From assembly GCA_038063735.1 (NCBI GenBank), contig JBBTUN010000002.1:13321-77320 (forward strand): a stretch of 64,000 bases of DNA, written 5' to 3'. A program made the translations under genes and the position numbers. The notes beneath the pieces are model-generated. The model worked only from the letters and a program-made list of their open reading frames with translations, made no database searches and was not told the origin of the DNA. The stretch comes from Patescibacteria group bacterium (GTDB taxonomy: Bacteria; Patescibacteriota; Microgenomatia; Curtissbacterales; GWA2-41-24). The stretch's first letter is position 1. Every line of letters begins with the position of its first letter. Positions 1-52,175 of this stretch are shown in pieces.

Positions 1-252
1 GCACTGGAGCTGAAGCGCGCCGGGATTATTGCGTCCCGTGAAGGTGCAGGCGGTGGTTACTCTCTGGCAAAAGCGGCAAATGAAATTAAAATTCTGGATG
101 TTTTGACAGTTTTGGATGGAGGTTTGGTTAAAGGTGAGTGTTTTGAAGACGACCATGAATGTAAGTGTGGGGCAAAAGGTATGTGGGGAGATATGAAAAA
201 ACAAATGGAGAAGACAATCGGCAAAAAAACAGTGGCTGATTTGGTGGCCTAA
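1..252 (+). CDS. Rrf2/IscR-family transcriptional regulator, C-terminal part (5' end outside window)
   Basis: Frame-1 translation ALELKRAGIIASREGAGGGYSLAKAANEIKILDVL...CFEDDHECKCG matches the Rrf2 wing-helix and C-terminal Cys cluster; sits directly upstream of suf genes. Confidence 0.55.
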   Translation, partial: ALELKRAGIIASREGAGGGYSLAKAANEIKILDVLTVLDGGLVKGECFEDDHECKCGAKGMWGDMKKQMEKTIGKKTVADLVA

Positions 253-253
253 C

Positions 254-556
254 ATGGATGAGAGAAAAGACCCTGTAAATGAGGTTCTCGGATATTTAGT
301 TAATCATGCCGACCCTGTAGAAGGTTCAATTCCAGATTTGGTATCTGACGCAACATGGGTAAATGAATTTATGGCTATAAGGGTAACTGCCCATGGTTTT
401 GGAGTGAAATTTGCTTGTAATTCTATGGCTGAAGAGGTTTATCTCGCAATTCGGAATGATCGTAAAGAAAATCCAGATGCAATGTATTACTTGTATAAAC
501 CAGTGATTCAAGGCCAACCCAGAGAAGGATTATTAATAGGCGGGTTGCTTAAATGA
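254..556 (+). CDS. hypothetical protein
   Basis: 100-aa ORF packed between flanking genes; no recognisable motif. Confidence 0.3.
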   Translation: MDERKDPVNEVLGYLVNHADPVEGSIPDLVSDATWVNEFMAIRVTAHGFGVKFACNSMAEEVYLAIRNDRKENPDAMYYLYKPVIQGQPREGLLIGGLLK

Positions 557-975
557 AATACTGGATTTTAGTCACGCATCCAAACAACTTTAAACTAATG
601 AAGGCCAAGAATATGGCGGCGATGAAGGCGAAGAGAAAAAGTTTTGCTCTCGCAGTTGAGCCGGGGGACAAAGTTGTTTTCTATTTGACTAAAATTGGCA
701 AATTTGGGGGAACAGCGGAGTTTACAACAAGAGCCAGAAACGAAAGTTCAAAAATATTTACGGAGGAAAAGCCCGGTGAAGTCCATCCCTGGAGGTTTGA
801 CGTGAAGTTTGAGAAAAAGCTGGACGAGGCGGATTATGTGCCGTCGGAAAAGTTTAAAGACAAACTTGTTTATCTTAAAAAATGGCCGGCAAAGTACTGG
901 AAACTGGGTTTTCAGGGAAATGTGCACGAAATTGGCCGTGATGATTTTGAGACTTTAAAGAAGGGATTGGGTTAA
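553..975 (+). CDS. hypothetical protein (possibly EVE/PUA-like)
   Basis: 140-aa ORF overlapping the upstream stop by 4 nt; N-terminus MKYWILVTHPNNF weakly resembles EVE-domain starts. Confidence 0.35.
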   Translation: MKYWILVTHPNNFKLMKAKNMAAMKAKRKSFALAVEPGDKVVFYLTKIGKFGGTAEFTTRARNESSKIFTEEKPGEVHPWRFDVKFEKKLDEADYVPSEKFKDKLVYLKKWPAKYWKLGFQGNVHEIGRDDFETLKKGLG

Positions 976-1223
976 TGGTAAAAGAAGACGGAAGAAGTTT
1001 TGGTATTAAGCCGGCATTAGAGTTTGTCAGAAGTAGATTAGGAAAGGCAAATCCAGTTGCGGCTTCTGTTGAAGGGCCGGAGTTGACGGAAGAAGAGCAA
1101 AGGGAACTTTGTCTCTCGGGAATTCCGGGGACAGCTGCGCATGCCAGGGCAGCGCAAAAACTTGTGGATTCTTTCGATCAGGTTGAATTACATAGAAAGA
1201 GGAGAAAGAAAGGAGGGAAATAG
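975..1223 (+). CDS. hypothetical basic protein
   Basis: 82-aa ORF, start overlaps the previous stop. Confidence 0.3.
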   Translation: MVKEDGRSFGIKPALEFVRSRLGKANPVAASVEGPELTEEEQRELCLSGIPGTAAHARAAQKLVDSFDQVELHRKRRKKGGK

Positions 1224-1226
1224 TAT

Positions 1227-1451
1227 ATGAACAATGGAAGAGCCAAAATGATAAGGGATCAGGCTGCAAGGAGGATGGCTGTTTTTGAGGAGGCACGAGG
1301 ATGGAGGCAGCAGGGCGTGGATTTGCAAAACAAAGGAGAAGTAGTACATGGACATTATGGTCCGTTGGTGCCGAAACGTCGCCCAGTTTCTGTTGAGGGT
1401 ACGGTTTCAAGAATTCCTGACGAGTTAAAACCTTCACAGAGGGAGAGATAA
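1227..1451 (+). CDS. hypothetical small protein
   Basis: 74-aa ORF with upstream GGAGG-like site (aaaggagggaaatagtatATG). Confidence 0.25.
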   Translation: MNNGRAKMIRDQAARRMAVFEEARGWRQQGVDLQNKGEVVHGHYGPLVPKRRPVSVEGTVSRIPDELKPSQRER

Positions 1452-1676
1452 ATGGAAAGAAGATTGCCAAAACCTGTCGAGGTGGGGAGGTTTGCCAGAA
1501 AACAAGCTACCAGTATTTCGGTGGTGGTTGGAAGTAGTGGGTTGGTTACGACTACATTTATGTCGGGACGAGTAGACACTTTGATAGGTGTTGTGGGAGG
1601 AATGGCTGCAGGTTATGTTGCGCATCGGATTATTACGCACCCAAAAGGTAGTAGAAATGAACTTAAAGATAAATAA
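1452..1676 (+). CDS. hypothetical small membrane protein
   Basis: 74-aa ORF with a hydrophobic stretch; overlaps the chosen sufC start by about 20 nt. Confidence 0.25.
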   Translation: MERRLPKPVEVGRFARKQATSISVVVGSSGLVTTTFMSGRVDTLIGVVGGMAAGYVAHRIITHPKGSRNELKDK

Positions 1677-2547
1677 ATTAAAGGTTAAAGTTGGGGGCCC
1701 ATCCTTCGCTTCATCCTACGCTAAGGCTACGGATGACAAGAAAGCTATGGAGGGCAAGGAAATTTTAAAAGGTGTTGACCTGGAGGTTGGTGCCGGTGAA
1801 GTCCATGTGGTGATGGGGCCGAATGGGAGTGGAAAAAGTACGCTGGCGCAGGTGATAGCAGGGAACCCAATGTACAAAGTTCACAGTGGACAGATCACGG
1901 TTGACGGTAAAAACATAATTAAATTAAGTCCGGATAAAAGGGCGAAGCTGGGGATATTTTTGGGTTTCCAGAACCCGATTGAAATTCCGGGCGTTAGTGT
2001 TTTCAACGTAATTAGGAAGGCAAGTCAATCTCAAGTGGGTCCTGCCAGTAGTTTCCCTCCCGTCAGTGCTCAATTGAAAACAAAATCCGTGCGTAATGGT
2101 AAATCGAGTGTCAATCTGCGCGCTGCCGGAAGCCCTTCCACTACTGTCACCCAGTTTCGTCAAGATCTTTTAAAATATGCATCTTCTTTAAAATTATCAT
2201 CCGATCATCTTTCCAGATCTTTTAATGAAGGGTTTTCCGGTGGGGAAAAAAAGAGAAATGAGATTTTGCAGATGCTGGCACTGTCGCCAAAACTTGTAAT
2301 TTTGGATGAGATAGATAGTGGGTTGGATGTGGATGGATTGAAGCTGGTAGCCGGTGCTATCAAGAAATTCTCAATTCTCAATTCTCAATCCTCAATTATC
2401 CTTATTACCCACTATGCCCGCATCCTTAAATACATCAAGGCAGATTTTGTGCATGTGATGACTGATGGGAAAATTGTTAAATCCGGAAAGCAAAAATTGG
2501 CAACGGAAATTGAGGAGAAAGGATACCAGTTCGTTAATAGTTTATAG
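1657..2547 (+). CDS. sufC: Fe-S cluster assembly ATPase SufC, with two in-frame repeat insertions
   Basis: Walker A GPNGSGKST, ABC signature FSGGEKKR, Walker B LVILDEIDSGLD and C-terminal IILITHYARIL...GYQF, typical of SufC. Start chosen at MNLKINKLKV (SufC-like MLxIxNLHV); the ORF-track start at 1588 looks like an upstream extension. Extra segments at about 1692-1739 and 2030-2160 are absent from canonical SufC. Confidence 0.85.
   Translation: MNLKINKLKVKVGGPSFASSYAKATDDKKAMEGKEILKGVDLEVGAGEVHVVMGPNGSGKSTLAQVIAGNPMYKVHSGQITVDGKNIIKLSPDKRAKLGIFLGFQNPIEIPGVSVFNVIRKASQSQVGPASSFPPVSAQLKTKSVRNGKSSVNLRAAGSPSTTVTQFRQDLLKYASSLKLSSDHLSRSFNEGFSGGEKKRNEILQMLALSPKLVILDEIDSGLDVDGLKLVAGAIKKFSILNSQSSIILITHYARILKYIKADFVHVMTDGKIVKSGKQKLATEIEEKGYQFVNSL
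1692..1739 (+). repeat. family-B in-frame element (encodes GGPSFASSYAKATDDKK) in sufC
   Basis: gggggcccatccttcgcttcatcctacgctaaggctacggatgacaag; related to 7667-7702 and 55275-55350. Confidence 0.6.
2113..2155 (+). repeat. family-A in-frame element (encodes NLRAAGSPSTTVTQ) in sufC
   Basis: aatctgcgcgctgccggaagcccttccactactgtcacccag; about 80% identical to 50494-50540. Confidence 0.7.
2375..2400 (+). repeat. CTCAATT/CTCAATC tandem tract in sufC (encodes FSILNSQSSII)
   Basis: ctcaattctcaattctcaatcctcaatt. Confidence 0.6.
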
Positions 2548-2600
2548 TTCATGGTTCATAGTATGCGATTAACGATTAACAATTTACGATTAACGAATAA
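2532..2600. repeat. family-D fragment plus (CGATTAACGA)-like tandem at the sufC 3' end
   Basis: gttaatagtttatagttcatggttcatagtatg is the reverse complement of the tatgaaccatgaac core of 40879-40945; then gcgattaacgattaacaatttacgattaacga. Confidence 0.5.
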
Positions 2601-2625
2601 AAATCTGTCCAGAAAGGAGGCATAA

Positions 2626-3093
2626 ATGGAAAAACATTGGCGCAGATTAATTGGAAAGCCGGATATGGATCCAAAGCGAGCTTTACAGATGGCAGACGAG
2701 TTATCTCAACCTTTGGATTTGGTGCAAATGTTGGTTCAAGGATATGCAGAACATGGCCCCGAAAGCACTCGGAAGTTATGCCGGAAATTTTTGGAGCACC
2801 GTGAGAATGATAGAGTGGGTTTAATTGCTTTTCCTCATGAAACATTACAAAGACCGATCGCAATTAGCAATGAAGAAATTGTAGGAAAAAGAAAGTTTAT
2901 GTTGATGGTTTCACCACTACTACACCAACAAATGTGCAGTCCAGACACCAGCCTCGAAGTTGAAAAACAGGTGCTTAGAGCAGTGAAGGCTTTAGTTGAA
3001 GAGATTGATGAATCTTTACAAAAAGGTGATGAAATAATGACAAGTGCTGAATATGACGAACTTATCAGATTGAGTAGACAATCAAGAAACTAA
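2626..3093 (+). CDS. hypothetical protein between sufC and sufB
   Basis: 155-aa ORF with strong RBS (aaaggaggcataaATG); no known motif. Confidence 0.45.
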
Positions 3094-3094
3094 T

Positions 3095-4486
3095 ATGAAC
3101 GATGTCCAGGTAACTGATTACAAATACGGTTTTTCCAAGCCGGAGAATTATGTTTTTAAATCCAAACGTGGTTTGGATGTTGGTGTGGTGGAAGAAATTT
3201 CTTCTATGAAGGGTGAACCTGTGTGGATGAGGGATTTGCGCATAAAAGCATTGGGTATTTTTGAAAAAAAGAAAATGCCGAGTTGGGGTGCGGATTTGTC
3301 TTCCATTGACTTTGACAACATTTTCTACTACATAAAGCCCACAGATAACCAAAAAACAGATTGGCGGGATCTGCCCAAAGAAATTAAAGATACTTATGAC
3401 GCAATCGGAATTCCGGAGGCGGAGCGGAATCTACTAGCGGGGGTTACTGCTCAATATGAAAGTGAGGCGGTTTACCATTCTTTCCAGAAAAAATGGGAAG
3501 ACATGGGCGTTATTTTTTGCGATATGGATACAGCGCTAAAAAAATATCCGGATATTGTCAAATCTTATTTCGGAAGAAGCATTCCGGCAGCCGACAATAA
3601 ATTTGCAGCCTTAAATTCTGCGGTTTGGTCTGGCGGTTCTTTTATCTACGTGCCTCCCGGGATAAAAGTCGATATTCCACTGCAAGCGTATTTTAGGATT
3701 AATGCTGCCAACATGGGGCAGTTTGAAAGGACGCTGATTATTGTGGACGAAGGCGCGTATGTACATTATGTCGAAGGTTGCACGGCGCCGGTTTATTCAA
3801 CGGATTCGCTGCATGCTGCGGTTGTTGAGATTTTTGTCAAAAAGGGCGCGAGGTGCAGGTATACAACTATCCAAAATTGGAGCAATAACGTTTACAACCT
3901 TGTGACCAAGCGGGCGTTTGTAGAAGAAGATGGCGTAATGGAATGGGTGGACGGTAATTTGGGAAGTAAGATTACCATGAAATATCCGAGCTGTTATTTG
4001 GTTGGGCGAGGTGCGCGGGGAGAAATTTTGTCTTTGGCACTGGCGGGGTCTGGCCAACACCAGGATGCGGGCGGAAAGTTAGTTTTTTTGGCGCCGGATA
4101 CAAGCGGGGAGATTATTTCCAAGTCAGTTAGTGTTGGAACGGGTAGGACTTCTTATCGCGGTTTGGTTAAAATAATCAAAAATGCGCAGAGGGTGAAGTG
4201 CAATGTGCGCTGTGATGCGCTGGTTATTGATGAGGAAAGTCGATCGGACACGTATCCGACAATGGAAGTTGCGGAGGATAATGTGCAGATTGGGCACGAG
4301 GCGAGTGTTTCGCGAATTGGCGAGGAGCAACTTTTCTATTTGATGAGTAGAGGTTTAACGGAGGTTGAGGCAACGTCTCTTATAGTAAATGGCTTCATCG
4401 AGCCGATTGTTAAAGAATTGCCGCTTGAATATGCAGTGGAGTTGAATCGGTTGATAAATTTAAGTATGGAAGGAGCGGTAGGATAA
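3095..4486 (+). CDS. sufB: Fe-S cluster assembly protein SufB
   Basis: 463 aa; C-terminal ...RGLVKI..N.....C..C.ALVID.....TYP..EV......[28 protein letters not shown] is characteristic of SufB. Confidence 0.9.
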
Positions 4487-4487
4487 T

Positions 4488-4907
4488 ATGGAAACTGAAA
4501 GACCAAGAAACGTAATAAATTTTAAAGAATCAGTTAGAATTCTCAAAAAGCGGCAGGTGAGAAAGAGGGTTAACTTTGATTTACATAGGACGGTGAAATT
4601 ACATGCGTTTTTAAGTGATCGATTGGGTGATGAACATGAACTGACTAGCACCTTCATGCCCCCAAAGTCACTAAAACCAAGATTTGATTTGCTAGTCACG
4701 AGACGAGGAATAGATCAGATTGCCAGGATGTTACTTGATGAACAAGATGCCAATGTCAGGAAATCTGTTGGAGAATCTTTGATCGGGTTGGATTATGCAT
4801 TTACCGGGGTCAGTGGATATCCGTGGGGTAATGTTGCATACGAAGCATTTATTGCAGAACACTATGAAGATATTAGTAGGCAAGAGGCTTTAGATATTGT
4901 TCAATGA
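4488..4907 (+). CDS. hypothetical protein (cassette 1 between sufB and sufD)
   Basis: 139-aa ORF starting 1 nt after the sufB stop; followed by repeat copy R1. Confidence 0.45.
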   Translation: METERPRNVINFKESVRILKKRQVRKRVNFDLHRTVKLHAFLSDRLGDEHELTSTFMPPKSLKPRFDLLVTRRGIDQIARMLLDEQDANVRKSVGESLIGLDYAFTGVSGYPWGNVAYEAFIAEHYEDISRQEALDIVQ

Positions 4908-4950
4908 ACCATATTATTTTACAAAAAGACGAAAAGAGGTTAAATGGGGG
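4903..4950 (+). repeat. direct repeat R1 (copy of the sufD 5' leader)
   Basis: caATGAACCATATTATTTTACAAAAAGACGAAAAGAGGTTaaatggggg; 40/40 identical to R3 over the core. Confidence 0.8.
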
Positions 4951-5363
4951 CTGAAGATTTGATCGCTCAAGCGGAGAGAGCTGCATACCATGAAGACTAC
5001 CGGAATTTCCGAGTTCGATTAGAGACTGAAACGTTTTTGGCAGTACATGGTTTATTAAAAGTCGATAAAATTTTAGAAGAAACTGATCTTCATAACAGAC
5101 AATTGTCTTTAGGAGAAGGACTTTTTACTATGCTGGCAGACAGGTTTAGAGACGCAATGCGCAAGGCGGAAGATCATGGTACGGAAACAATTGAAGTCGA
5201 TTTAAGCTACAGGGAATTGAATACGTTAGGAGATGTAGCAGTAGTCAAGGGAAATGCTGCTTTGGCACCTTATGTCTTAAACTTGAATGGGGCGTTTGTT
5301 GCTGCGGGTGGGCGCGATAATCAAAGACTGAGAGCGTATTTTGAAATGCTTACAGGGATATGA
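4944..5363 (+). CDS. hypothetical protein (cassette 2)
   Basis: 139-aa ORF; its start ATGGGGG lies immediately after repeat copy R1, which carries the RBS AAGAGG. Confidence 0.45.
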   Translation: MGAEDLIAQAERAAYHEDYRNFRVRLETETFLAVHGLLKVDKILEETDLHNRQLSLGEGLFTMLADRFRDAMRKAEDHGTETIEVDLSYRELNTLGDVAVVKGNAALAPYVLNLNGAFVAAGGRDNQRLRAYFEMLTGI

Positions 5364-5390
5364 ACCAGATTATTTTACAAAAAGACGGAC
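5361..5390 (+). repeat. direct repeat R2 (degenerate copy)
   Basis: tgaaccagattattttacaaaaagacggac. Confidence 0.7.
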
Positions 5391-5429
5391 TTAAATTCGG
5401 GTCTTTGGCTCGGAGGGGAGGATGGTAGG

Positions 5430-5990
5430 ATGAACGAGATTTTAGCGACCGCTGACTTTACAGACGAGGTTTTTGATGATGTTTATTTAAATTATTTATC
5501 GGATGCGGCGATTGCACATTTGGTGTTTGGTGTCGAAAGCGTATTAAGGTTAAATCAAGAAGCAGAGCCTAGGCTTGATTTTAACTTAAAACCAGCTCAT
5601 CCACTATTTGAGTATGACATTATGAGTAAATCTAGGCCGGATTGGCAGGATTGGAAACAAGTGCTTTTGCATCACGAAAGTTATAGTCAAATTTCCAAGT
5701 CGATGGAAGAAACCATTGGTTCTCCACCATATGCTTTTGGTTATTTAAAAGGAAAATTGCTTTTGTTAACTGCGAAAGATGCGGATACGATTAAATATGG
5801 CACGAGTTTATTTTGGGCATACTTAGATGGTGATTGTGAAGTTTCGGAAGACGGGGAATATATAAAAAGACTGATGCAACTATCGAGGGGAGTTTCTCCG
5901 GAATTTCATTATAGGCATGATATTCCTGTAGAAGACAAACAAGGTGGGGGAAAGTGGAGATCATTACTAAGAAGGATCAAAGGTAGCTAA
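5430..5990 (+). CDS. hypothetical protein (cassette 3)
   Basis: 186-aa ORF, RBS ggaggggaggatggtaggATG; followed by repeat copy R3. Confidence 0.45.
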   Translation: MNEILATADFTDEVFDDVYLNYLSDAAIAHLVFGVESVLRLNQEAEPRLDFNLKPAHPLFEYDIMSKSRPDWQDWKQVLLHHESYSQISKSMEETIGSPPYAFGYLKGKLLLLTAKDADTIKYGTSLFWAYLDGDCEVSEDGEYIKRLMQLSRGVSPEFHYRHDIPVEDKQGGGKWRSLLRRIKGS

Positions 5991-6044
5991 TCAATGAACC
6001 ATATTATTTTACAAAAAGACGAAAAGAGGTTGATTGGGATAATG
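5991..6044 (+). repeat. direct repeat R3 (sufD 5' leader)
   Basis: caatgaaccatattattttacaaaaagacgaaaagaggttgattgggataATG. Confidence 0.8.
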
Positions 6045-6614
6045 CTAGGAGACGATAAACCCGGTCATCCTGAACTTGGTTCAGAATCTAGATCCCGAAA
6101 CCCTTCGACTTCGCTCAGGGCGAGCAAGTTCGGGATGACAGAAGGGCGATTGGATGTTGTTCTTGCCGGAGAAAATTCGGAAATTGAGGTTGTAGGATTA
6201 CTAATGGCCAAAGGCGAAAGCCAAACGGCGCTGGAAGTTTACATAACCCACGTGGGGGAAAACACGAAATCAAAGGTTAATGTTAGGGCGGTTTTGCGGG
6301 GAAAATCAACGTTTGCATTTCGGGGGAATGTCAAAATAGAAAAAGGTGCAAAGGGTGCGGATGCATATTTGCGGAGTGATGCGCTTTTGTTTGACGATGC
6401 CAAAATGGGCGACGATACGCCGGCACTGGAGATTTTAGAGAGGGATGTAAAAGCCGGGCATGCGGCGACGATTGGAAAAGTGGATGAGCAAATGTTGTTT
6501 TATTTAATGAGCAGGGGAATTACAAGGAAACAAGCGGAAAAGCTGTTAATTCAGGGATTTGTGGAGCTAATACGATCAAAGCTTAACGACGAACGACTAA
6601 GGACAAAAGCATGA
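6042..6614 (+). CDS. sufD: SufD-like protein, short form (C-terminal SufBD domain only)
   Basis: C-terminal ...[36 protein letters not shown] matches the SufB/SufD C-terminus. Start placed at the ATG following GAGG in the repeat leader; the ORF track starts at 5994 inside the repeat. Carries an in-frame family-C element at 6065-6140. Confidence 0.6.
   Translation: MLGDDKPGHPELGSESRSRNPSTSLRASKFGMTEGRLDVVLAGENSEIEVVGLLMAKGESQTALEVYITHVGENTKSKVNVRAVLRGKSTFAFRGNVKIEKGAKGADAYLRSDALLFDDAKMGDDTPALEILERDVKAGHAATIGKVDEQMLFYLMSRGITRKQAEKLLIQGFVELIRSKLNDERLRTKA
6065..6140 (+). repeat. family-C double-hairpin element with a nested family-B-like core, in-frame in sufD
   Basis: catcctgaacttggttcagaatctagatcccgaaac[ccttcgacttcgctcagggcgagc]aagttcgggatgac; compare 9021-9075. 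Confidence 0.6.
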
Positions 6615-6979
6615 GCGGGAAAGGATATTTTAGATTTGAAAAACTTGATGTTTGGATTGATGCAAGACAGTTTGTATCTTTAATATACAAAGTCACAGAA
6701 GATTTCCCTGCAAAGGAGAGATTCGGATTAATCGATCAGATTAGAAGAGCAGCAGTTTCGATTGCTTTAAACATTGCGGAAGGTTCGACTAAAAATTCTG
6801 ACCCGGATTTTAGAAGGTTCTTGAGAATGTCTCAAGGTTCTGTGAATGAAGTTGTTACAGCACTTTATATTGCTTTGGATCAAAAGTTTATTAAAGAGGG
6901 AAAATTTGATGAACTATATGAATTTACATTAAGGTTAAATGCAAGGCTAAATGCACTAATAAAAAGCATTAGTCATTAG
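6611..6979 (+). CDS. four-helix-bundle protein (23S rRNA intervening-sequence protein family)
   Basis: FEKLDVW..A..F...IYK.T..FP..E.FGL..QIRRAA.SI..NIAEG is the signature of this family. Confidence 0.7.
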   Translation: MSGKGYFRFEKLDVWIDARQFVSLIYKVTEDFPAKERFGLIDQIRRAAVSIALNIAEGSTKNSDPDFRRFLRMSQGSVNEVVTALYIALDQKFIKEGKFDELYEFTLRLNARLNALIKSISH

Positions 6980-7016
6980 TCTTTTGTCTTTAGACATCCG
7001 ACGAAAGGAGGATTAT

Positions 7017-7328
7017 ATGAAAGTAAAAGTCGCTAAAAAGTCTGATATTGCTAAAGGGAAGGTGATTCCTGTTAAAGTTGGTGGCGAGGAAGTTGCGATT
7101 TATCACACAGAAAGCGATGAGTGGTTTGCGACTTCCGACATTTGCACACACGAAGCGTGCAATTTGAGCTATGAGGGTGGAAAACTGCAAGGGTATGAGA
7201 CGGAATGCGATTGTCACGGTTCCAAATTTGATATCAGAACCGGTGCGGTTACATTGCCGCCGGCATTTGAACCGCTAAAGACTTTCAAAGTTGAAACCCA
7301 AGGAGAGGATATATTAGTTGAAGATTAA
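7017..7328 (+). CDS. Rieske [2Fe-2S] ferredoxin-like protein
   Basis: CTHEAC...(17 aa)...CDCHGSKF matches CxH...CxxH Rieske ligands; RBS aaaggaggattatATG. Confidence 0.75.
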   Translation: MKVKVAKKSDIAKGKVIPVKVGGEEVAIYHTESDEWFATSDICTHEACNLSYEGGKLQGYETECDCHGSKFDIRTGAVTLPPAFEPLKTFKVETQGEDILVED

Positions 7329-7633
7329 TGGATAGAGAGCGTTTTTCAAGAGGAAAACTTAAAAAAGATTTTGTAAATATTGTGTCTGGTAGACTCAAAA
7401 GATTATTTTCCATGGAGGAATGGGATAGTATCATGGGTCATTTGAAAACCGATCGTGCTGTAGTTGTGCGTTTCCATTCAGATTCGGAAAAGAATGTCAT
7501 GTGGGGTTTATATTCGTCAAAGGGCAGGACTGAGCGTTTTTCCCAGCAATATGTCCTGGGAGGCGACCGACCAGAAGAGTTTGGAAATTATCCGGTTATT
7601 AATAAGGAATTGGGAGTTGTAGATGAATCGTAG
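7328..7633 (+). CDS. hypothetical protein
   Basis: 101-aa ORF packed between the Rieske gene and sufS. Confidence 0.35.
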   Translation: MDRERFSRGKLKKDFVNIVSGRLKRLFSMEEWDSIMGHLKTDRAVVVRFHSDSEKNVMWGLYSSKGRTERFSQQYVLGGDRPEEFGNYPVINKELGVVDES

Positions 7634-8876
7634 GCAAGATTTTCCAATATTGAATCGGAAAATAAATGGTCCCTCCTATGCTAAAGCTTCGGAGGGCAAG
7701 AAACCTTTGGTTTATCTGGACAGTGCGGCGACGTCTCAGAAGCCAAAGCAAGTTCTTAACGCAATTTCCGACTATTACCAAAAACATAACGCCAATGTGC
7801 ATCGGGGAATCCACACTTTATCTGTGGAGGCAACGGAAATGTACGAAGCGGCACGGAAGAAGGTAGCTGATTTTGTTGGTGTAAAAGATCCGGCGGAGAT
7901 TATTTTTGTGAGAAATGCTACCGAGGCGATCAATCTGGTTGCTTATTCTTGGGGTCGGTTCAACATATCAAAAGGTGATGAAATTGTAGTGACTGTCGCA
8001 GAGCACCACAGCAATTTTGTGCCGTGGCAGCAACTGGCAATCCAGAAGCAGGCAAAATTTAAAGTAGTTCCCATCAATAAAGAAACCGGTGAGATTGATC
8101 TTAAGGCGCTTGGTAAATTACTGACAAAGAAAACGAAAATAGTCGCTTTTGCCCATGTTTCTAATGTTTTAGGGACGATTAACGATGTTTTGCATTTGTC
8201 GTTAGTCGTTCGTCGTTTGGCGCCACAAGCAATAGTACTTGTGGATGGTGCCCAAGCTGTTCCGCATATGCCTGTTGATATTTCTGAAATCGGTTGCGAT
8301 TTTTATGTTTTTACCGGACACAAAATGCTGGGGCCAACCGGAATTGGGGTTTTGTGGGGAAGGCGGGAGCTTTTGGAGACGATGACACCATTTTTATTTG
8401 GGGGAGAAATGATTTCCAAAGTTTCTCTAGAAAAATCCACTTGGAACGAATTGCCGTGGAAGTTTGAAGCGGGAACCCCGGATATTGCGGGGGCGATTGG
8501 ATTAGGAGCGGCGGTTGATTATCTTGATAAAATTGGCATGGATAAGGTTCGGGAGCACGATGTAGAACTAACAAAATATGCGATTGAAAAGTTATCAAAA
8601 ATTGATGGTGTGATTATATATGGACCGAAAGATGTCAAAAAGCGCAGCGGAGTGGTTGCATTTAATGTTGGGTCAATACACGCCCATGATGTGGCATCGA
8701 TTTTGGATAGTGAGGGGATTGCTGTCCGGTCCGGTCACCACTGCGCCCAACCACTCATGGATTTTTTGGGAGTTTCGTCTGTTGCGAGAGCCAGTTTTTA
8801 TCTATATAACTCCATTGAAGAAGTGGATAGGTTAGTGGAGGGTGTTTTGAAAGTTAAGGAGGTTTTTAAAATATAA
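7623..8876 (+). CDS. sufS: cysteine desulfurase SufS (class V aminotransferase)
   Basis: Motifs ...VYLDSAATSQKP, the PLP-lysine region FYVFTGHKMLGPTGIGVLWG and the active-site region RSGHHCAQPLM are typical of group II SufS. N-terminal GPSYAKASEGKK is an inserted repeat-encoded segment. Confidence 0.9.
   Translation: MNRRQDFPILNRKINGPSYAKASEGKKPLVYLDSAATSQKPKQVLNAISDYYQKHNANVHRGIHTLSVEATEMYEAARKKVADFVGVKDPAEIIFVRNATEAINLVAYSWGRFNISKGDEIVVTVAEHHSNFVPWQQLAIQKQAKFKVVPINKETGEIDLKALGKLLTKKTKIVAFAHVSNVLGTINDVLHLSLVVRRLAPQAIVLVDGAQAVPHMPVDISEIGCDFYVFTGHKMLGPTGIGVLWGRRELLETMTPFLFGGEMISKVSLEKSTWNELPWKFEAGTPDIAGAIGLGAAVDYLDKIGMDKVREHDVELTKYAIEKLSKIDGVIIYGPKDVKKRSGVVAFNVGSIHAHDVASILDSEGIAVRSGHHCAQPLMDFLGVSSVARASFYLYNSIEEVDRLVEGVLKVKEVFKI
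7667..7702 (+). repeat. family-B in-frame element (encodes GPSYAKASEGKK) in sufS
   Basis: ggtccctcctatgctaaagcttcggagggcaagaaa; CCCTCC...GGAGGG arms. Confidence 0.55.
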
Positions 8877-9311
8877 GTGGATCTTTACCGCGAGGAAATT
8901 TTGGAACATTGGCAAAACCCGTTAAATTTTGGGGAAATGAAAAATGCCGATTTAGTGATTGAACAGGTTAACCCGCTTTGCGGAGACGAAGTGACGTTTT
9001 ACTTTAGGTTTTCGATCAGTCATCCTGAACTCGATTCAGGATCTAAAAAGATTCCGAAACAAGTTCGGAATGACGAGTGGCAAATAGCGAATGGTCAGTG
9101 GCGAATAAGTGAAGTATCGTTTACCGGTTCTGGCTGTGCTATATCTATCGCTTCGGCTTCGATTTTGTCGGAAAATATCAAGAATAAGAAAATCTCTACG
9201 TTATCCAAAATAACGGGTGAGGATGTTTTGAAATTGATTGGCGGACCAGTGGCACCGGCAAGACTTAAGTGTGCTTTTTTGTCGCTTGAGGTGATTCGCA
9301 AAATTCGATAA
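8877..9311 (+). CDS. sufU: SufU/IscU-like Fe-S scaffold protein (GTG start)
   Basis: NP.N.G.......V...NPLCGDEV and GSGCAIS..SAS with a C-terminal ...KCA.L motif are characteristic of SufU; contains the in-frame family-C element. Confidence 0.75.
   Translation: MDLYREEILEHWQNPLNFGEMKNADLVIEQVNPLCGDEVTFYFRFSISHPELDSGSKKIPKQVRNDEWQIANGQWRISEVSFTGSGCAISIASASILSENIKNKKISTLSKITGEDVLKLIGGPVAPARLKCAFLSLEVIRKIR
9021..9075 (+). repeat. family-C double-hairpin element in-frame in sufU
   Basis: cATCCTGAActcgaTTCAGGATctaaaaagaTTCCGAAacaagTTCGGAAtgac: two perfect 8-bp/7-bp hairpins. Confidence 0.65.
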
Positions 9312-9323
9312 AATACACAGATG

Positions 9324-9403
9324 GCTGATAAGAAATAAGATATCAGCAGGTCGCCTTGGCACCTTTCAGTCATGCCAAAGGCGCTTCTCTGATATTTTTA
9401 TTT
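9324..9403 (+). terminator. rho-independent terminator after sufU (two hairpins then T-rich run)
   Basis: Palindrome GCTGATAagaaataagaTATCAGC, then GGTCGCCTTGGCA...TGCCAAAGGCGC, followed by ttctctgatatttttattt. Confidence 0.5.
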
Positions 9404-9407
9404 AATT

Positions 9408-9638
9408 ATGAGTAAGATTGGTAAATATAAAATAAAAATAGACCGCAATCTCTGTATCGGGGCAGCTTCCTGTGTTGCCTTGGCGATGAAGACGTTTGAG
9501 CTGGATGAAGAGAATAAGGCAATAGTTATAGATGAAGGCGGAGATGAGGCAGAAACGATAAAGTTGGCTGCCGAATCTTGCCCGACAAAGGCAATAATTT
9601 TGGAAAATGCTGAGACCGGTGAGCAGGAATACCCCTAA
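9408..9638 (+). CDS. small single-cluster ferredoxin
   Basis: 76 aa; CIGAASC...AAESCPTKAI resembles Fe-S ferredoxins of the C-x-G...SCP class. Confidence 0.55.
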   Translation: MSKIGKYKIKIDRNLCIGAASCVALAMKTFELDEENKAIVIDEGGDEAETIKLAAESCPTKAIILENAETGEQEYP

Positions 9639-9694
9639 CTCTGCAGATGCAGAGTAATTTCAAATCTCAAATTTCAAATGTCTAATGTTAGAAT

Positions 9695-10498
9695 ATGGGC
9701 ATGGCGGAGGAAAAGGCTTCCAGGGAAAAAATAGACGGATATTTAAAGGATGTTCTGGCGCGCAAAGAAAAATACTTGTCCGAAAATGCCCAGTACAGGA
9801 AACATGAAAGCATGTATCACCGGCATACTGCCGGCAAATATATCGGTGATTTTATTTATGGTGCTAACGACGGGATTATTACAACATTTGCGGTAATTGC
9901 CGGATCGTTTGGTGCTTCGCTTACCCCGATCGTAATTATTATTTTGGGGTTTGCAAACCTTCTTGCAGACGGCCTATCAATGGGCGCAAGCAATTTTTTG
10001 GGAAGAAAATCGGAACAGGATTATGCGCGGGCACAGAGGCAGAAAGAGGAATGGGAAATTGACCATTTAAGGGAAATTGAGATTGAGGAGATTAGGGAAA
10101 TTTATGAACGCAAGGGTTTTAGCGGGAAAGACTTGAAAAGAGCGGTTGAAATTATCACCTCCGACCGTAAGATCTGGCTGGATACGATGATGAGAGATGA
10201 ACTGAACATAATTGAGGAAACGGACAATGATCCGGTAAGACACGGGATTGCCACGTTTGCTTCGTTTGTAGTGGCCGGTTTGTTTCCCTTGCTTCCTTAT
10301 TTGGTACCGAATATGCCCAGCCCGTTTTTGTTATCAATATTAGTTGGAGGTATCACATTGTTTTTCTTGGGAAGCCTTAGGTCTTTGGTTACAACTGTTT
10401 CCTGGTTGAAGGGTGGCTTAGAAGTTTTGGCAATTGGTTCGGTTGCCGCAATTGCAGCTTATATGGTTGGGAAAATAGTTGAGGGATTTATAAGATGA
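9695..10498 (+). CDS. VIT1/CCC1-family iron/manganese transporter
   Basis: GANDGIITTFAVIAG motif, acidic/helical central region and a second hydrophobic half are typical of VIT-family proteins. Confidence 0.65.
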   Translation: MGMAEEKASREKIDGYLKDVLARKEKYLSENAQYRKHESMYHRHTAGKYIGDFIYGANDGIITTFAVIAGSFGASLTPIVIIILGFANLLADGLSMGASNFLGRKSEQDYARAQRQKEEWEIDHLREIEIEEIREIYERKGFSGKDLKRAVEIITSDRKIWLDTMMRDELNIIEETDNDPVRHGIATFASFVVAGLFPLLPYLVPNMPSPFLLSILVGGITLFFLGSLRSLVTTVSWLKGGLEVLAIGSVAAIAAYMVGKIVEGFIR

Positions 10499-11760
10499 AA
10501 AAGACGGATTATTTGATTGTAGGCGGTTCGGCGGCGGGGACGACTGCTGCAGATACCATTCGAAATTTAAATTCGGATGCCACAATTGCGATTGTGACTG
10601 AAGAGGACTATCCGCAATATTCGCTTGTTTTAATTCCACATTATATCCGCGGCAAAATAAGCCGTGAACAGGTTTTTTTGAAAAAGCCCCAGTGGTATAA
10701 CGAACGGAAAATAGAGCTTATAAAAGGGGTTAGGGCGGAGGGTTTAGGGTCTAGTGAGAAGACTGTTAAGTTATCAAATAGTGAAACTATCCAATTTGGA
10801 AAGCTGCTTTTGACGGTTGGCGGGAAAGTAATTCCATTTAATGTTCCCGGGGCGGATGTCAAAAATCTTCTTTATATGAGAACCATTGATGATGCGGACA
10901 AAATTATTGATATAGCCAAAAAAAGTAAAAAAGCTTTGATTATTGGCGGAGGGTTTATTGGGCTGGAGTTTGCGTCGTGTTTTGCCAAAAATGGGGTTGT
11001 TGATATCACGGCATTAGTTCTTGAGGATTTTTACTGGCAGGGGAAGTTGGATAGTCAGTCCAGTCAAGTTGTTGCCGGAGTATTAACCAACAACGGAATT
11101 AAAATAGAGACCAAAGTTTCCGTGGATCATTTTGAAACTAAAGAAGGTATGATAACGGCAGCAATTGCCAAGGACGGTCGAAGGTTTGAGGCCGATGCTG
11201 TTGGGGTTGGTGTCGGCATCCGCAGCGATTTAAGTTTTCTTGAGGGATCCGGGCTTAAGATTGATAGAGGTATAGTCACAAACGAGTATCTGGAGACAAA
11301 TTTACCCGATGTTTACGCTGCCGGGGATTGTGCCCAGTTTTGGGACAGTGTTTTTAAAAGGGAGCATATTTTGGGTAATTGGGCAAACGCAACAAGTCAG
11401 GGTTTGGCTGTTGGAAAAACCATGACTGGCCTGCGAACGAAATTTGAGACAGCTTCTTCTTATACAACTAATTTTTTTGACGGATCTTGTTCATTTTTGG
11501 GTGTGACAGACGAAAAGTTTGCGGAAAATATAATTATTCGTGGATCTGCAGATGAAGGGAAAATCAGTAGGATATTTGTTAAAAAGTATCCTTCGCTAAG
11601 CTCAGGACAAGTGGCTCGAATTATTGGTGCAACGGTCGTAAATAATGTGGGGGAAGTTGCCCCACTTACTATGGCGATTAAGAACAAAGTCGATGTGACT
11701 AATCACGTATCCGATTTAGACAAAGTGGATTTTGATTTGAAGTCGCTTATTGCTTTGTAA
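10495..11760 (+). CDS. FAD-dependent pyridine nucleotide-disulfide oxidoreductase (NADH oxidase / rubredoxin reductase-like)
   Basis: N-terminal YLIVGGSAAGTTAA (FAD GxGxxG), second Rossmann motif LIIGGGFIGLEFA, and ...AAGDCA. Confidence 0.7.
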   Translation: MKKTDYLIVGGSAAGTTAADTIRNLNSDATIAIVTEEDYPQYSLVLIPHYIRGKISREQVFLKKPQWYNERKIELIKGVRAEGLGSSEKTVKLSNSETIQFGKLLLTVGGKVIPFNVPGADVKNLLYMRTIDDADKIIDIAKKSKKALIIGGGFIGLEFASCFAKNGVVDITALVLEDFYWQGKLDSQSSQVVAGVLTNNGIKIETKVSVDHFETKEGMITAAIAKDGRRFEADAVGVGVGIRSDLSFLEGSGLKIDRGIVTNEYLETNLPDVYAAGDCAQFWDSVFKREHILGNWANATSQGLAVGKTMTGLRTKFETASSYTTNFFDGSCSFLGVTDEKFAENIIIRGSADEGKISRIFVKKYPSLSSGQVARIIGATVVNNVGEVAPLTMAIKNKVDVTNHVSDLDKVDFDLKSLIAL

Positions 11761-11827
11761 ATTTGCGATTACACCCAGAAAACTAGTAAGCTTAATGTAG
11801 AGGTGCCAGGTGCATCTTTTTTCGTAG

Positions 11828-12274
11828 ATGAAGATTTATATTGCTGCAGATCATGCGGGTTTTTATTTAAAAAAAACACTAATCCAGTATTTGGGTATTA
11901 AAGGTTACGAGGTGGAGGATTGTGGGGCGTATGAGATGGATGAAAAGGACGATTACCCGGATTTTATAGTACCCTGTGCAAAAAAAGTTGCAAGCGATAA
12001 AGATTCACTAGGCATTGTGATTGGGGGTAGTGGGAATGGTGAGGCAATTGCGGCAAATAAGGTTAAGGGAATACGGGCTGCAGTTTATAACAGTGGAAGG
12101 GCAGAAATAGCAAAGTTAGCTCGCGAACATAATAATGCCAATATACTTTCGCTTGGTGCACGATTTATCACGCCAGATGAGGCAAAACGTGCAGTTACTG
12201 CATGGTTGGAGGCGGAATTTGAGGGTGGCAGGCATGAGGCAAGGCTAAAAAAAATGGAGGAAATAGATAAGTGA
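11828..12274 (+). CDS. rpiB: ribose-5-phosphate isomerase B
   Basis: MKIYIAADHAGFYLK...DCG...GIVIGGSGNGEAIAANK matches RpiB/LacAB. Confidence 0.85.
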   Translation: MKIYIAADHAGFYLKKTLIQYLGIKGYEVEDCGAYEMDEKDDYPDFIVPCAKKVASDKDSLGIVIGGSGNGEAIAANKVKGIRAAVYNSGRAEIAKLAREHNNANILSLGARFITPDEAKRAVTAWLEAEFEGGRHEARLKKMEEIDK

Positions 12275-12633
12275 AGCACACGAGATTGTACCTTTATTTA
12301 AATTTTATTTTTATTTTTATTTTTCTGAATGTTTGGGACTTTGCTATAAACCGTATTTTTTTCAACGGTATGCTACTTGGGCTTATTATGTTTGCCCCGA
12401 TTGGTCTGTTGTGGTTTATAGGCAAGTTTAATGCTGTGGTTTTAATCACGTTGATTTCTATTTTCGAGTTTGTTGTAATGTCTATTTTTGTCTGGGAAGG
12501 TTTTGAACTGTCGGGTGCCAGTTCTTCTGTAAAATCCGTTTTTTGGATTCCGTATTTGTTGGCTGCAGGCATAAATGGTTTTTGGGGTTTGAATATTTAT
12601 TCGAAGGCTAAGAAAAACACACAACCAGTTTAA
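12271..12633 (+). CDS. hypothetical membrane protein (GTG start)
   Basis: 120 aa, three or four hydrophobic helices; contains a (ttttatt)3 tract near the 5' end. Confidence 0.35.
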   Translation: MKHTRLYLYLNFIFIFIFLNVWDFAINRIFFNGMLLGLIMFAPIGLLWFIGKFNAVVLITLISIFEFVVMSIFVWEGFELSGASSSVKSVFWIPYLLAAGINGFWGLNIYSKAKKNTQPV

Positions 12634-31938: not shown

Positions 31939-32814
31939 TTATAGCTGTTCGAGTTTGAGTTTTTCCTCACCCTTAGGAAGTTGAATAAGGGAGAGGTAGC
32001 GCTCGGTAGTTGATAGCCTTTTGTGGCCGGCTATTTTAGAAATCAGAACGAGGGATGCTCCGCTTGAGAGGTGGTGCGCAACCCAGGTGTGTCTAAGGTC
32101 GTTGACTTTAGCGCCGGTTATGCCTGCTTTTCTGTAATATCTGTCGATTGCCGTTCTTATGTTTCTAACCAGAAGCGGTTTGCCGGTTTTTGTTACGAAT
32201 AGGGCTCTATTTGTAGTTTTTGGTCTTATTTCCAGATACTTTTTAAGGGCATTTTCGGCTGCCTTATTTAAAGGAACTGTTCTTTCTCCACGATTTTCTT
32301 GAGGGCGTACGAAAAGATGGCCTTCTTTGTTTTCTTCTCCAAAAAAGACATCGTCGATTCGTAAATTTGCGAGTTCACCAATTCTAACGCCTGTTTGAAG
32401 AAGAATTTCAATAATTGCGGCAATTCGAACGTCGTCTCTGGCTGCATCTCTTAGTGCTCTGTATTCAATAGGGGTTAGGATTCTGGGAGGTTTAGTTTCG
32501 AATTTTGGGTGTTCAACAAGGGAAGCCGGGTCGTCGGTTATGTATTCTTTGATTTTAAGAAAACGGAAGAACGTTTTTGTGGAATTTAGCTTTCTGGAGA
32601 GTGATTTTTGAGTGTAGCCCGTAGATTGCAGTTTTTCCAGGAAGTTCTTAATATCGTCCGGTTTTATTTCGTGGACGTGCACCTTTTGAAGGTCGGCGAA
32701 GAATTTGATCAGCTGTTCTATGTCCTTGCCGTATGCAAGCACAGTTGCCGATGCTCTTTTCCTGCCTTTTAAATGGTCAACAAATTCCTGATGTGCTTCT
32801 TGTAATTTCTTCAT
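31939..32814 (-). CDS. tyrosine site-specific recombinase (XerC/XerD/integrase family)
   Basis: C-terminal catalytic region ...LRHTWVAHHLSSGASLVLISKIAGHKRLSTTERYLSL (R..H..R.Y motifs) and an N-terminal SAM-like domain. Confidence 0.8.
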   Translation of the reverse strand: MKKLQEAHQEFVDHLKGRKRASATVLAYGKDIEQLIKFFADLQKVHVHEIKPDDIKNFLEKLQSTGYTQKSLSRKLNSTKTFFRFLKIKEYITDDPASLVEHPKFETKPPRILTPIEYRALRDAARDDVRIAAIIEILLQTGVRIGELANLRIDDVFFGEENKEGHLFVRPQENRGERTVPLNKAAENALKKYLEIRPKTTNRALFVTKTGKPLLVRNIRTAIDRYYRKAGITGAKVNDLRHTWVAHHLSSGASLVLISKIAGHKRLSTTERYLSLIQLPKGEEKLKLEQL

Positions 32815-51867: not shown

Positions 51868-52034
51868 GTGCAGATTATATTCTTGGCTATAGTATTTTTC
51901 AATTTAGCCCCTCGATGCTTCGGGCAACAGGAAACCTTAAACTAGAAACTTCACTGCGTTTTAACTAAACTATAATTGTCATGCTGAACTTGTTTCAGCA
52001 TCTATAAACTTCCGAGGGATAAGAGCCCTCGGTA

Positions 52035-52063
52035 TTGTTCTTTAAGTTTACATGAGCGAGCAG
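52035..52063 (+). repeat. 29-nt element shared with 30717-30745, embedded in hairpins
   Basis: ttgttctttaagtttacatgagcgagcag; flanked by CTTCCGAG...CTCGGAAG and CCGAGGGataagagCCCTCGG stems. Confidence 0.7.
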
Positions 52064-52148
52064 AACACTTATCTTCTCGGAAGTATGTATTTTCTCGCAT
52101 TCATCCTTGGACTGATAGTCCATGGTGTTCTGCGAACAAATATAAATA

Positions 52149-52175
52149 AGATCCTGAATTAAATTCAGGATGACG
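52149..52175 (+). repeat. family-C first hairpin, intergenic copy
   Basis: gATCCTGAATtaaATTCAGGATgac. Confidence 0.5.

Follow-up and report, generated by a model that had tools for sequence, protein, structure and literature searches.

How does a series of unrelated genes come to stand between two genes of a conserved operon? The question is raised by the sufB/sufD junction in a 64,000-nt stretch of contig JBBTUN010000002.1 from a Patescibacteria group bacterium (Curtissbacterales), a stretch that we refer to in its whole length as the window. Three hypothetical genes separate sufB from sufD here, and copies of a short repeat, R, lie between them. A first inspection of the letters (the sequence-only reading) proposed that these genes were captured as cassettes at a fixed attachment sequence, either in the manner of an integron or through homology. 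Our analysis indicates that the sufB/sufD junction of Curtissbacteria (Microgenomates, in the candidate phyla radiation (CPR)) is probably a cassette array that was built by recombination with no integrase, and that it resembles an integron in outcome only. CPR bacteria have tiny, streamlined genomes, and the ways in which they acquire genes are poorly understood; this locus would represent a simple route of gene gain that needs no recombinase, with a conserved junction in an essential operon as the landing pad.

The suf operon of the window reads sufC, a 155-aa open reading frame (ORF), sufB, three ORFs, sufD, a 23S-rRNA-IVP-family gene, Rieske, sufS and nifU. The three ORFs stand where the sequence-only reading had placed them. 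Exact-protein look-ups assign the contig to a Patescibacteria metagenome-assembled genome from the 0.1-µm fraction of Hainich groundwater, and relatives of its SufB mark the lineage as Candidatus Curtissbacteria. With T denoting the tail of sufB and its copies, the layout of the array is sufB(T)–ORF1–(R1)–ORF2–(R2..T)–ORF3–(R3 = sufD head)–sufD, comprising these features:

3095–4486, + strand: sufB, 463 aa, left border of the array (Pfam SUFBD_core, 2e-84)
4488–4907, + strand: cassette 1, ORF1, 139 aa, starting 1 nt past the sufB stop; no family match
4901–4948, + strand: R1, displaced sufD 5′ end, 41 nt identical and 46/48 nt similar to R3
4944–5363, + strand: cassette 2, ORF2, 139 aa, of a lineage-specific family with the C-terminal motif FVxAGGxDNxxLR
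5360–5387, + strand: R2, 28-nt core of the sufD head, matching at 27/28 nt with a single mismatch (CAT>CAG)
5405–5433, + strand: junction module, GC-rich core TTGGCTCGGAGGG followed at 5420–5433 by a T copy, GGATGGTAGGATGA
5430–5990, + strand: cassette 3, ORF3, 186 aa, with a homolog in the array of a related locus (L010)
5991–6038, + strand: R3, resident functional copy, TCA plus the first 15 codons of sufD
5994–6614, + strand: sufD, 206 aa, short form, right border of the array; true start at ATG 5994

Origin of the repeat R

A repeat search of the window returned one family with three copies (4901–4948, 5357–5404 and 5991–6038), which is the top direct repeat of the entire 64 kb and has no further copy there. 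R1 (4901–4941) and R3 (5991–6031) are identical across 41 nt, in agreement with the near-identity over 40 nt first noted for this pair, and their similarity extends to 48 nt, reaching the start codon of ORF2. The 38-mer ATGAACCATATTATTTTACAAAAAGACGAAAAGAGGTT occurs exactly twice in the window, a count reached in 0 of 100 shuffles, and the 19-nt core of R occurs three times and in no shuffle.

The sequence-only reading regarded R3 as the natural 5′ leader of sufD. We find instead that R is the 5′ coding end of the gene: since its ATG opens the sufD ORF (MNHIILQKDEKRLIGIML...) and the peptide that it encodes (MNHIILQKDEKRL) is kept in diverged SufD proteins, R constitutes the first 13–15 codons of sufD and is not an untranslated leader. 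We set a series of related loci, given L-numbers here, against the window array. The SufD N-terminus M(N)xIxLxKDEKRxI is kept at the protein level in L008, L011, L013, L015, L093 and L097, and diverged relatives carry the N-terminal peptides MNQIILQKDEKRLIGVML (L008), MITLKKDEKRVITVLM (L013), MKLIVLKKGEKKVIPALL (L012) and MNQIILQKDEKRLIPILL (L097). The motif AAGAGG, proposed as a ribosome-binding site that R1 and R3 deliver to the next gene, does lie 5 nt before the ORF2 ATG in R1, but in R3 it falls within sufD codons 11–12. For annotation, the consequence is that a short “leader-like” repeat may turn out to be a gene start out of place; mini-ORFs of the type MNHIILQKDEKRL... are sufD remnants.

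Across 91 loci plus the window, R copies occur only inside sufB–sufD arrays and only on the + strand, with a right-hand edge that ranges from 24 to 48 nt among junctions. A scan for the R core in a metagenome collection of 241 million records returned 7 stretches, all of them suf arrays. As a test of viral origin we looked in viral contigs for R and for relatives of ORF1–3, and found neither. The third codon of R is uniform among the copies of one genome (CAA in all three copies of L008, CAG in both copies of L010 and in both of L011), which suggests concerted evolution, local in-situ copying or gene conversion.

Tails of sufB and the ancestral junction

The second source of junction sequence is the opposite border of the array. 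The last 15 nt of sufB (4472–4486, GGAGCGGTAGGATAA) encode ...EGAVG-stop, and they define a motif, GGAG(Y)GTNGG-ATGA, that codes for ...EG[AS]VG-stop and whose stop overlaps the following ATG. Copies of this tail precede cassette start codons in the window (5420–5433, where the ATGA supplies the start codon of ORF3), in L008 (6991, 7195 and 7793), in L010 (7247 and 7483), in L093 (9704) and in L014 (9947). A motif scan of 12.5 kb of arrays counted nine internal copies; the rate outside arrays was 0.007 per kb (2.56 Mb, with sufB’s own stop left out), which makes the enrichment about 100-fold, and none of 10 other ATGA gene overlaps in the window carries the motif. On these two grounds we take T to be a copy of the sufB tail and not a generic coupling signal.

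R2 had been called a degenerate copy of R, but the R2 region is more than that, being composed of the 28-nt R core, a short GC-rich junction repeat and the copy of the sufB 3′ tail. Such R+T fusions are direct in L093, L011 and L008 (7793), and proceed via a short spacer at R2 of the window. The R2-type junction comes after the ORF2 homolog in L008 and after the ORF1 homolog in L010; in L011 the ORF2 homolog adjoins sufD itself.

The GC-rich core CTGGCYCGGAGGG is found at window 5405–5417, at ~6683 and ~7179 in L008, and at ~6448, ~6939 and ~7430 in L010, where a GIY-YIG gene has it at its 3′ end. It also occurs at L013 14627 and L101 1219, outside arrays and within a coding gene, occurrences that rule out CTGGCYCGGAGGG as an extended sufB tail; the core looks like a genome-wide miniature repeat. 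At times it holds a 33-nt hairpin-like insert (TCGCCTACGCACAAGGCTTCGGCGGACTAAAGA). Two of the mosaic breakpoints described below coincide with this core.

In outgroup CPR genomes sufD lies directly 3′ of sufB, adjacent or overlapping (ATGA); the Shapirobacteria locus L037 reads ...GGAAGTGTTGG-ATGA-sufD, the sufB stop overlapping the sufD start. Long matches had raised an intein or other insertion in sufB of other CPR genomes as a candidate, and proved to be SufB plus the adjacent paralogous SufD. The expectation that related genomes would have sufB followed directly by sufD is thus borne out for the outgroups, but every Curtissbacteria locus examined has cassettes: sufB and sufD are always parted, by 1–6 variable genes, in 12 distinct arrays. 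Content and order differ among all of them, so that, as the sequence-only reading supposed, a cassette array occupies a fixed position, with other cassettes in other orders between the same sufB and sufD:

Window: ORF1, ORF2, ORF3
L008: 110 aa, ORF2 homolog, 88 aa, 200 aa, 151 aa (ORF2 paralog)
L010: GIY-YIG, ORF1 homolog, 88 aa, 172 aa (ORF2 paralog), ORF3 homolog
L011: 120 aa, ORF2 homolog
L093: 78 aa, 186 aa
L094: ORF2 homolog, 140 aa
L097: 87 aa
L012: 221 aa
L013: 99 aa
L014: 192 aa, 116 aa
L015: 157 aa
L101: 242 aa, AHSA1 domain, 141 aa

The Curtissbacteria cassettes mostly start at the ATG of the ATGA that follows T and mostly end at the TGA of the ATGA that precedes R. Because they are bounded by T-ATGA on one side and ATGA-R on the other, they fill exactly the ancestral sufB/sufD overlap.

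We propose that the ancestor had a sufB stop overlapping the sufD start (…GTNGG-ATGA-…), and that genes were first plugged in at this overlap, which would yield units of the form T–ATGA–cassette–ATGA–R. Units of the same or different strains may then have been joined head to tail, either through unequal or illegitimate recombination or when a unit in circular form integrated by a single crossover, and such stacking would leave displaced R, T or R+T fusions between cassettes. The resulting 15–48-nt modules, together with the GC-rich short repeat, could act as portable homology for ordinary homologous recombination, which would swap, add and delete cassettes between species, probably following DNA uptake, with selection maintaining the stop/start overlaps. 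Within this scheme we infer the stacking mechanism, the dependence on RecA and on DNA uptake, and actual translational coupling.

Is a dedicated recombinase at work instead, moving single-ORF circles with R as its attachment site? The array does contain promoterless single ORFs in one orientation, with one copy of a fixed sequence after each, it has an “attI-like” site at sufD, and cassette order differs among genomes. For the window, L008 and L010, however, no integrase was found within 8–10 kb of the array. The sole tyrosine recombinase of the window, as the sequence-only reading had it, is the XerC/D-like gene at 31939–32814, which lies on the minus strand 26 kb away, scores best on XerC/XerD, and reaches 60.9 bits on the integron integrase model TIGR02249 against a cut-off of 265. 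Nor did we find an attC-like hairpin: single-stranded DNA folds of R1, R2 and R3 with their flanks, on both strands, gave minimum free energies of −1.2 to −3.4 kcal/mol (z from +0.91 to −0.68 against shuffles), and the repeat search revealed no inverted repeat within R. Moreover, a single attachment site would leave unexplained both the variable edge of R and the many junctions that carry a sufB tail instead of or besides R. The repeats copy the sufD head and the sufB tail, that is, both flanking gene ends, and therefore indicate homologous or illegitimate recombination. We consider a site-specific, integron-like system very unlikely.

A break-driven route deserves mention because of one cassette in L010, a free-standing GIY-YIG gene of 98 aa (6181–6477) directly after sufB (Pfam, 1.8e-14; PHROG homing endonuclease, 4e-5). 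The gene’s own 3′ end copies the sufB tail (...REGLVG-stop), and the gene may be a homing-type insertion at the sufB/sufD junction. In a homing-endonuclease hotspot, such an enzyme would cut naive sufB/sufD junctions, and repair of the break would copy in the endonuclease along with cassettes, duplicating gene ends; the position of the L010 gene and its 3′ end fit this, as does the recurrence of the GC-rich motif of that end at other junctions, including window 5405–5417. A GIY-YIG gene is nevertheless present in just 1 of 12 arrays, and neither in the window array nor in the rest of the 64 kb; its protein is a bare catalytic domain with no recognisable DNA-binding domain, and the junction motif occurs outside arrays too. 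We therefore regard a homing hotspot as a rather improbable origin of the arrays.

Cassette genes and their exchange between species

The window SufB is 97–98% identical in amino acid sequence to SufB of L008, L010, L093 and L097. L008 and L010 share a segment of ~530 nt, comprising R, an 88-aa gene and a palindromic element, that is 92–98% identical per 100-nt block, with sufB at just 84% nucleotide identity. The identity begins exactly at the R ATG and stops at the GC-rich junction repeat just before T, and the neighbouring cassettes are unrelated. Similarly, homology between the window and L008 runs from R1 through ORF2 up to exactly GGCTCGGAGGG in the R2 region and then diverges. Mosaic breakpoints thus fall exactly at R and at the GC-rich repeat beside T, in support of the earlier proposal of cassette capture.

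Synonymous divergence (dS) of ORF2, window against L008, is 0.37, and that of the 88-aa cassette, L008 against L010, is 0.12. For the flanking genes, compared between the window and L008 and between the window and L010, it is 0.9–1.0 in sufB and 1.2–1.3 in sufD. Since cassette dS lies so far below that of sufB and sufD, and since the breakpoints are sharp, cassettes have been exchanged horizontally apart from the flanking core genes, and their transfer from species to species postdates the divergence of the flanks.

Repeated tandem duplication of cassette plus sufD head, followed by divergence with no horizontal exchange, would place the whole process in situ. Paralogs of the ORF2 family do occur twice per array in L008 and in L094, tandem duplications classically leave junctions such as the R+T fusion, and the third R codon is uniform within each genome. 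ORF1 was considered as a distant ORF2 paralog, with colinear motifs and an hhalign E of 9e-4 with a small profile; the link weakens to 0.013 with a deeper profile of 24 sequences and is unproven. ORF3 is unrelated to ORF1 and ORF2. A purely in-situ origin does not account for cassette dS of 0.12–0.37 beside 0.9–1.3 in the flanks, for the sharp interspecies breakpoints, or for the same downstream module following different upstream cassettes in different genomes, and R1 and R3 match at 100% while the cassettes that they flank are unalignable. Tandem duplication probably contributes, but it cannot account for everything, and as the sole process it is quite unlikely.

The cassettes themselves are single ORFs of 80–240 aa. 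ORF1–3 had been described as having no recognisable domains, and none of them matched Pfam, NCBIfam, PHROGs or PADLOC; when seven other cassettes were run against the same libraries, only the L010 GIY-YIG gene and the AHSA1 domain of L101 gave matches. The sole ORF1 homolog found, at L010 6478–6897, is 41% identical and occupies the same sufB–sufD slot. The ORF2 family has just 17 representatives (E<=1e-3) among 1.84 billion proteins; of those with known context nearly all lie in sufB–sufD arrays, and one distant member lies elsewhere. An AlphaFold2 model of ORF2 is helical and gave no informative match. The L010 homolog of ORF3 is 69% identical and frameshifted, ORF3 is distantly related to the 200-aa cassette of L008 and the 192-aa cassette of L014, and its AlphaFold2 model has a pLDDT of 33, too low to be of use. 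Values of dN/dS between 0.12 and 0.32 (ORF3, 0.20) mark the cassettes as real genes under purifying selection. They are no random capture, as a few lineage-specific families return to the same slot, and such lineage-restricted families (e.g. FVxAGGxDN) are candidates for Suf-associated or conflict-related functions.

A separate observation concerns L100, a 1018-nt contig from SRR7550461 that carries the sufB tail peptide (…KQIPLEYAV…) at both ends and an ORF2-family cassette between them. Either the assembly wrapped around at a repeat, or the contig hints at a form that is circular or tandem.

Several points weigh against an array built and shuffled by recombination. The stacking step, in which R is joined to T, is reconstructed and not observed. 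The available homology is only 15–48 nt, near the lower limit for RecA-type recombination. The internal R of L093 differs from its own sufD head at 5/28 nt, so that R copies were not always derived from the resident sufD. There is no rearrangement within the window’s species: contigs from several samples all show the same order, those with these exact proteins show one arrangement with no mini-circles or alternative junctions, and a look-up of the exact window SufB protein for other arrangements in the same species found no match on record. Turnover is therefore visible only between species, on evolutionary time scales. Finally, the cassette families are nearly confined to the sufB–sufD slot, which could mean that they are Suf-related accessory genes diversifying in place and not mobile cargo.

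A further reading is a purpose-evolved “plug-in socket”, in which the sufD head and sufB tail are selected adaptors and the fast-turnover cassette families are Suf-interacting factors diversifying under conflict. Such adaptors would allow any ORF to join the essential SufBCD scaffold genes and to be translated together with them, and the cassettes might be, for example, protectors or modulators of the Fe–S scaffold in a host-dependent CPR bacterium. Alternatively, an undiscovered recombinase might act on the 28-nt R core, which would make the array a new integron-like class that uses the beginning of an essential gene as its attachment site. We hold either of these to be unlikely.

The junctions have a consistent translational geometry. 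ORF1 ends in a TGA that overlaps the R1 ATG, and ORF2 in a TGA that overlaps the R2 ATG, each time as ATGA. The R1 mini-ORF (4904–4954, 16 codons) opens within the stop of ORF1 and runs 11 nt into ORF2, and the R2 mini-ORF (5360–5428, 22 codons) stops 1 nt ahead of the ORF3 ATG. In L008, L010, L011, L093 and L094 as well as in the window, the mini-ORFs started by R reach the following start codon, either stopping there or overlapping it, and those of L010, L093 and L094 do so through an ATGA overlap with the next cassette. Overall, ATGA/GTGA overlaps or gaps of 0–1 nt characterise the ORF1/R1, R1/ORF2, ORF2/R2 and R2/ORF3 junctions and most junctions of the other arrays. Promoter-like and terminator-like sites showed no enrichment across 1–12500 and none at R, and an Rfam search of 4300–6300 gave no match. 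Because the modules carry stop/start overlaps along with Shine-Dalgarno-like AAGAGG/GGAG, the cassettes are probably coupled to their neighbours; expression could then run from sufB through the array into sufD with no promoter of its own, and the sequences suggest that this coupling has probably been preserved. The copied gene ends may thus serve twice, as homology for interspecies exchange and as translational signals through which expression of the essential gene downstream is maintained.

These same features could be read as those of an old stable operon, whose repeats were kept purely as good ribosome-loading sequences, with recombination irrelevant. The array is identical in all samples of the window’s species, AAGAGG stands just before the ORF2 start, and stop/start overlaps mark almost every junction. 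But each related species has an array of different content, R is a copy of coding sequence with no occurrence elsewhere in the window or at other loci, and both the breakpoints and the dS values show exchange. The sequence-only reading had itself named, as observations that would speak against capture, the same genes and repeats in syntenic relatives and a leader found before many genes; relatives differ in content, and R is confined to this type of locus. We judge an old stable operon to be extremely improbable.

Analogous systems and the rest of the suf operon

The closest analogues of an integrase-free, recombination-built array are the shuffling mediated by promoter early stem-loops (PeSLs) in T4-type phages and the minimal mobile elements (MMEs) of Neisseria. 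PeSLs (Arbiol et al. 2010, PMC2839356; Comeau et al. 2014, PMC4122927) are short conserved expression signals repeated between small, mostly ORFan genes of a hyperplastic region. Recombination at PeSLs inserts, deletes and replaces genes with no dedicated recombinase, and small circles are the proposed vector (PMC2839356). The suf array likewise has short conserved sequences flanking variable ORFs, with breakpoints in them and no recombinase. PeSLs, however, are promoters plus terminator stem-loops in phage genomes. The suf repeats are copied coding ends of two essential genes in a bacterial housekeeping operon, with translational signals and no stem-loop; R lacks the sigma70-type early promoter and terminator stem-loop that define a PeSL, and no circles were seen for the suf array.

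MMEs (Saunders and Snyder, cited in PMC1538595) are fixed slots between two conserved genes with strain-variable content. They differ from the suf array in being described as replacements at a site and not as tandem stacks, and they are not known for duplicated ends of flanking genes between cassettes or for kept stop/start overlaps. Exchange reportedly takes place when DNA taken up by transformation recombines homologously within the conserved flanks, with no mobility gene.

Integrons and target-gene islands are more distant comparisons. The suf array shares with integrons an ordered, one-orientation series of promoterless single-gene cassettes, each with a copy of a junction sequence, that relies on upstream expression signals and varies in order and content between related genomes. 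Unlike integrons, it has no IntI and no attC hairpin, its junctions derive from both neighbouring genes, and its expression probably depends on translational coupling in the operon and not on a Pc promoter. In tRNA-targeting islands and tycheposon-type arrays, one insertion is set off from the next by a partial copy of the target gene, and the intact target remains at one end. The suf array matches this in its partial target copies between insertions and in the intact gene, sufD, at one end; those elements, however, carry integrases and are kilobases long, whereas suf units are single integrase-free ORFs with remnants of both flanks.

The border gene sufD is itself unusual. It matches Pfam SUFBD_core (1.2e-45; profile positions 91–232 of 232) and TIGR01981 sufD (1.8e-48). 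SufD proteins of this lineage are 176–262 aa long and cover just the C-terminal 60% of the SUFBD core, the typical N-terminal half of SufD being missing; SufD of Shapirobacteria L037 has 142 aa.

Small genes without a match in relatives, at either the nucleotide or the protein level, occupy further junctions of the suf operon: 2626–3093 (the 155-aa ORF at the sufC/sufB junction), 6611–6979 (the 23S_rRNA_IVP-family gene at the sufD/Rieske junction) and 7328–7633 (a 101-aa ORF at the Rieske/sufS junction, in the place held by a DUF1706 gene in L010). We saw no flanking repeats at these three slots.

Small elements bounded by inverted repeats (GTCATCCTGAAC ... GTTCGGGATGAC) sit in frame within coding genes, at 6064–6139 in sufD, at 9019–9074 in a nifU-like gene (8877–9311) and at 51978–52174, and add peptides such as GHPELGSESRSRNPSTSLRASKFGMTEG. 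The insertion spot in sufD carries different inserts in L008, L010, L013 and L015 and none in L097, L012 and L014. In sufC (1588–2547) an internal insert (…GPSFASSYAKATDDKKAMEGK…) splits the ABC_tran match and is probably another in-frame insertion of a repeat element. The 88-aa cassette that L008 and L010 have in common carries a comparable element in its non-coding tail.

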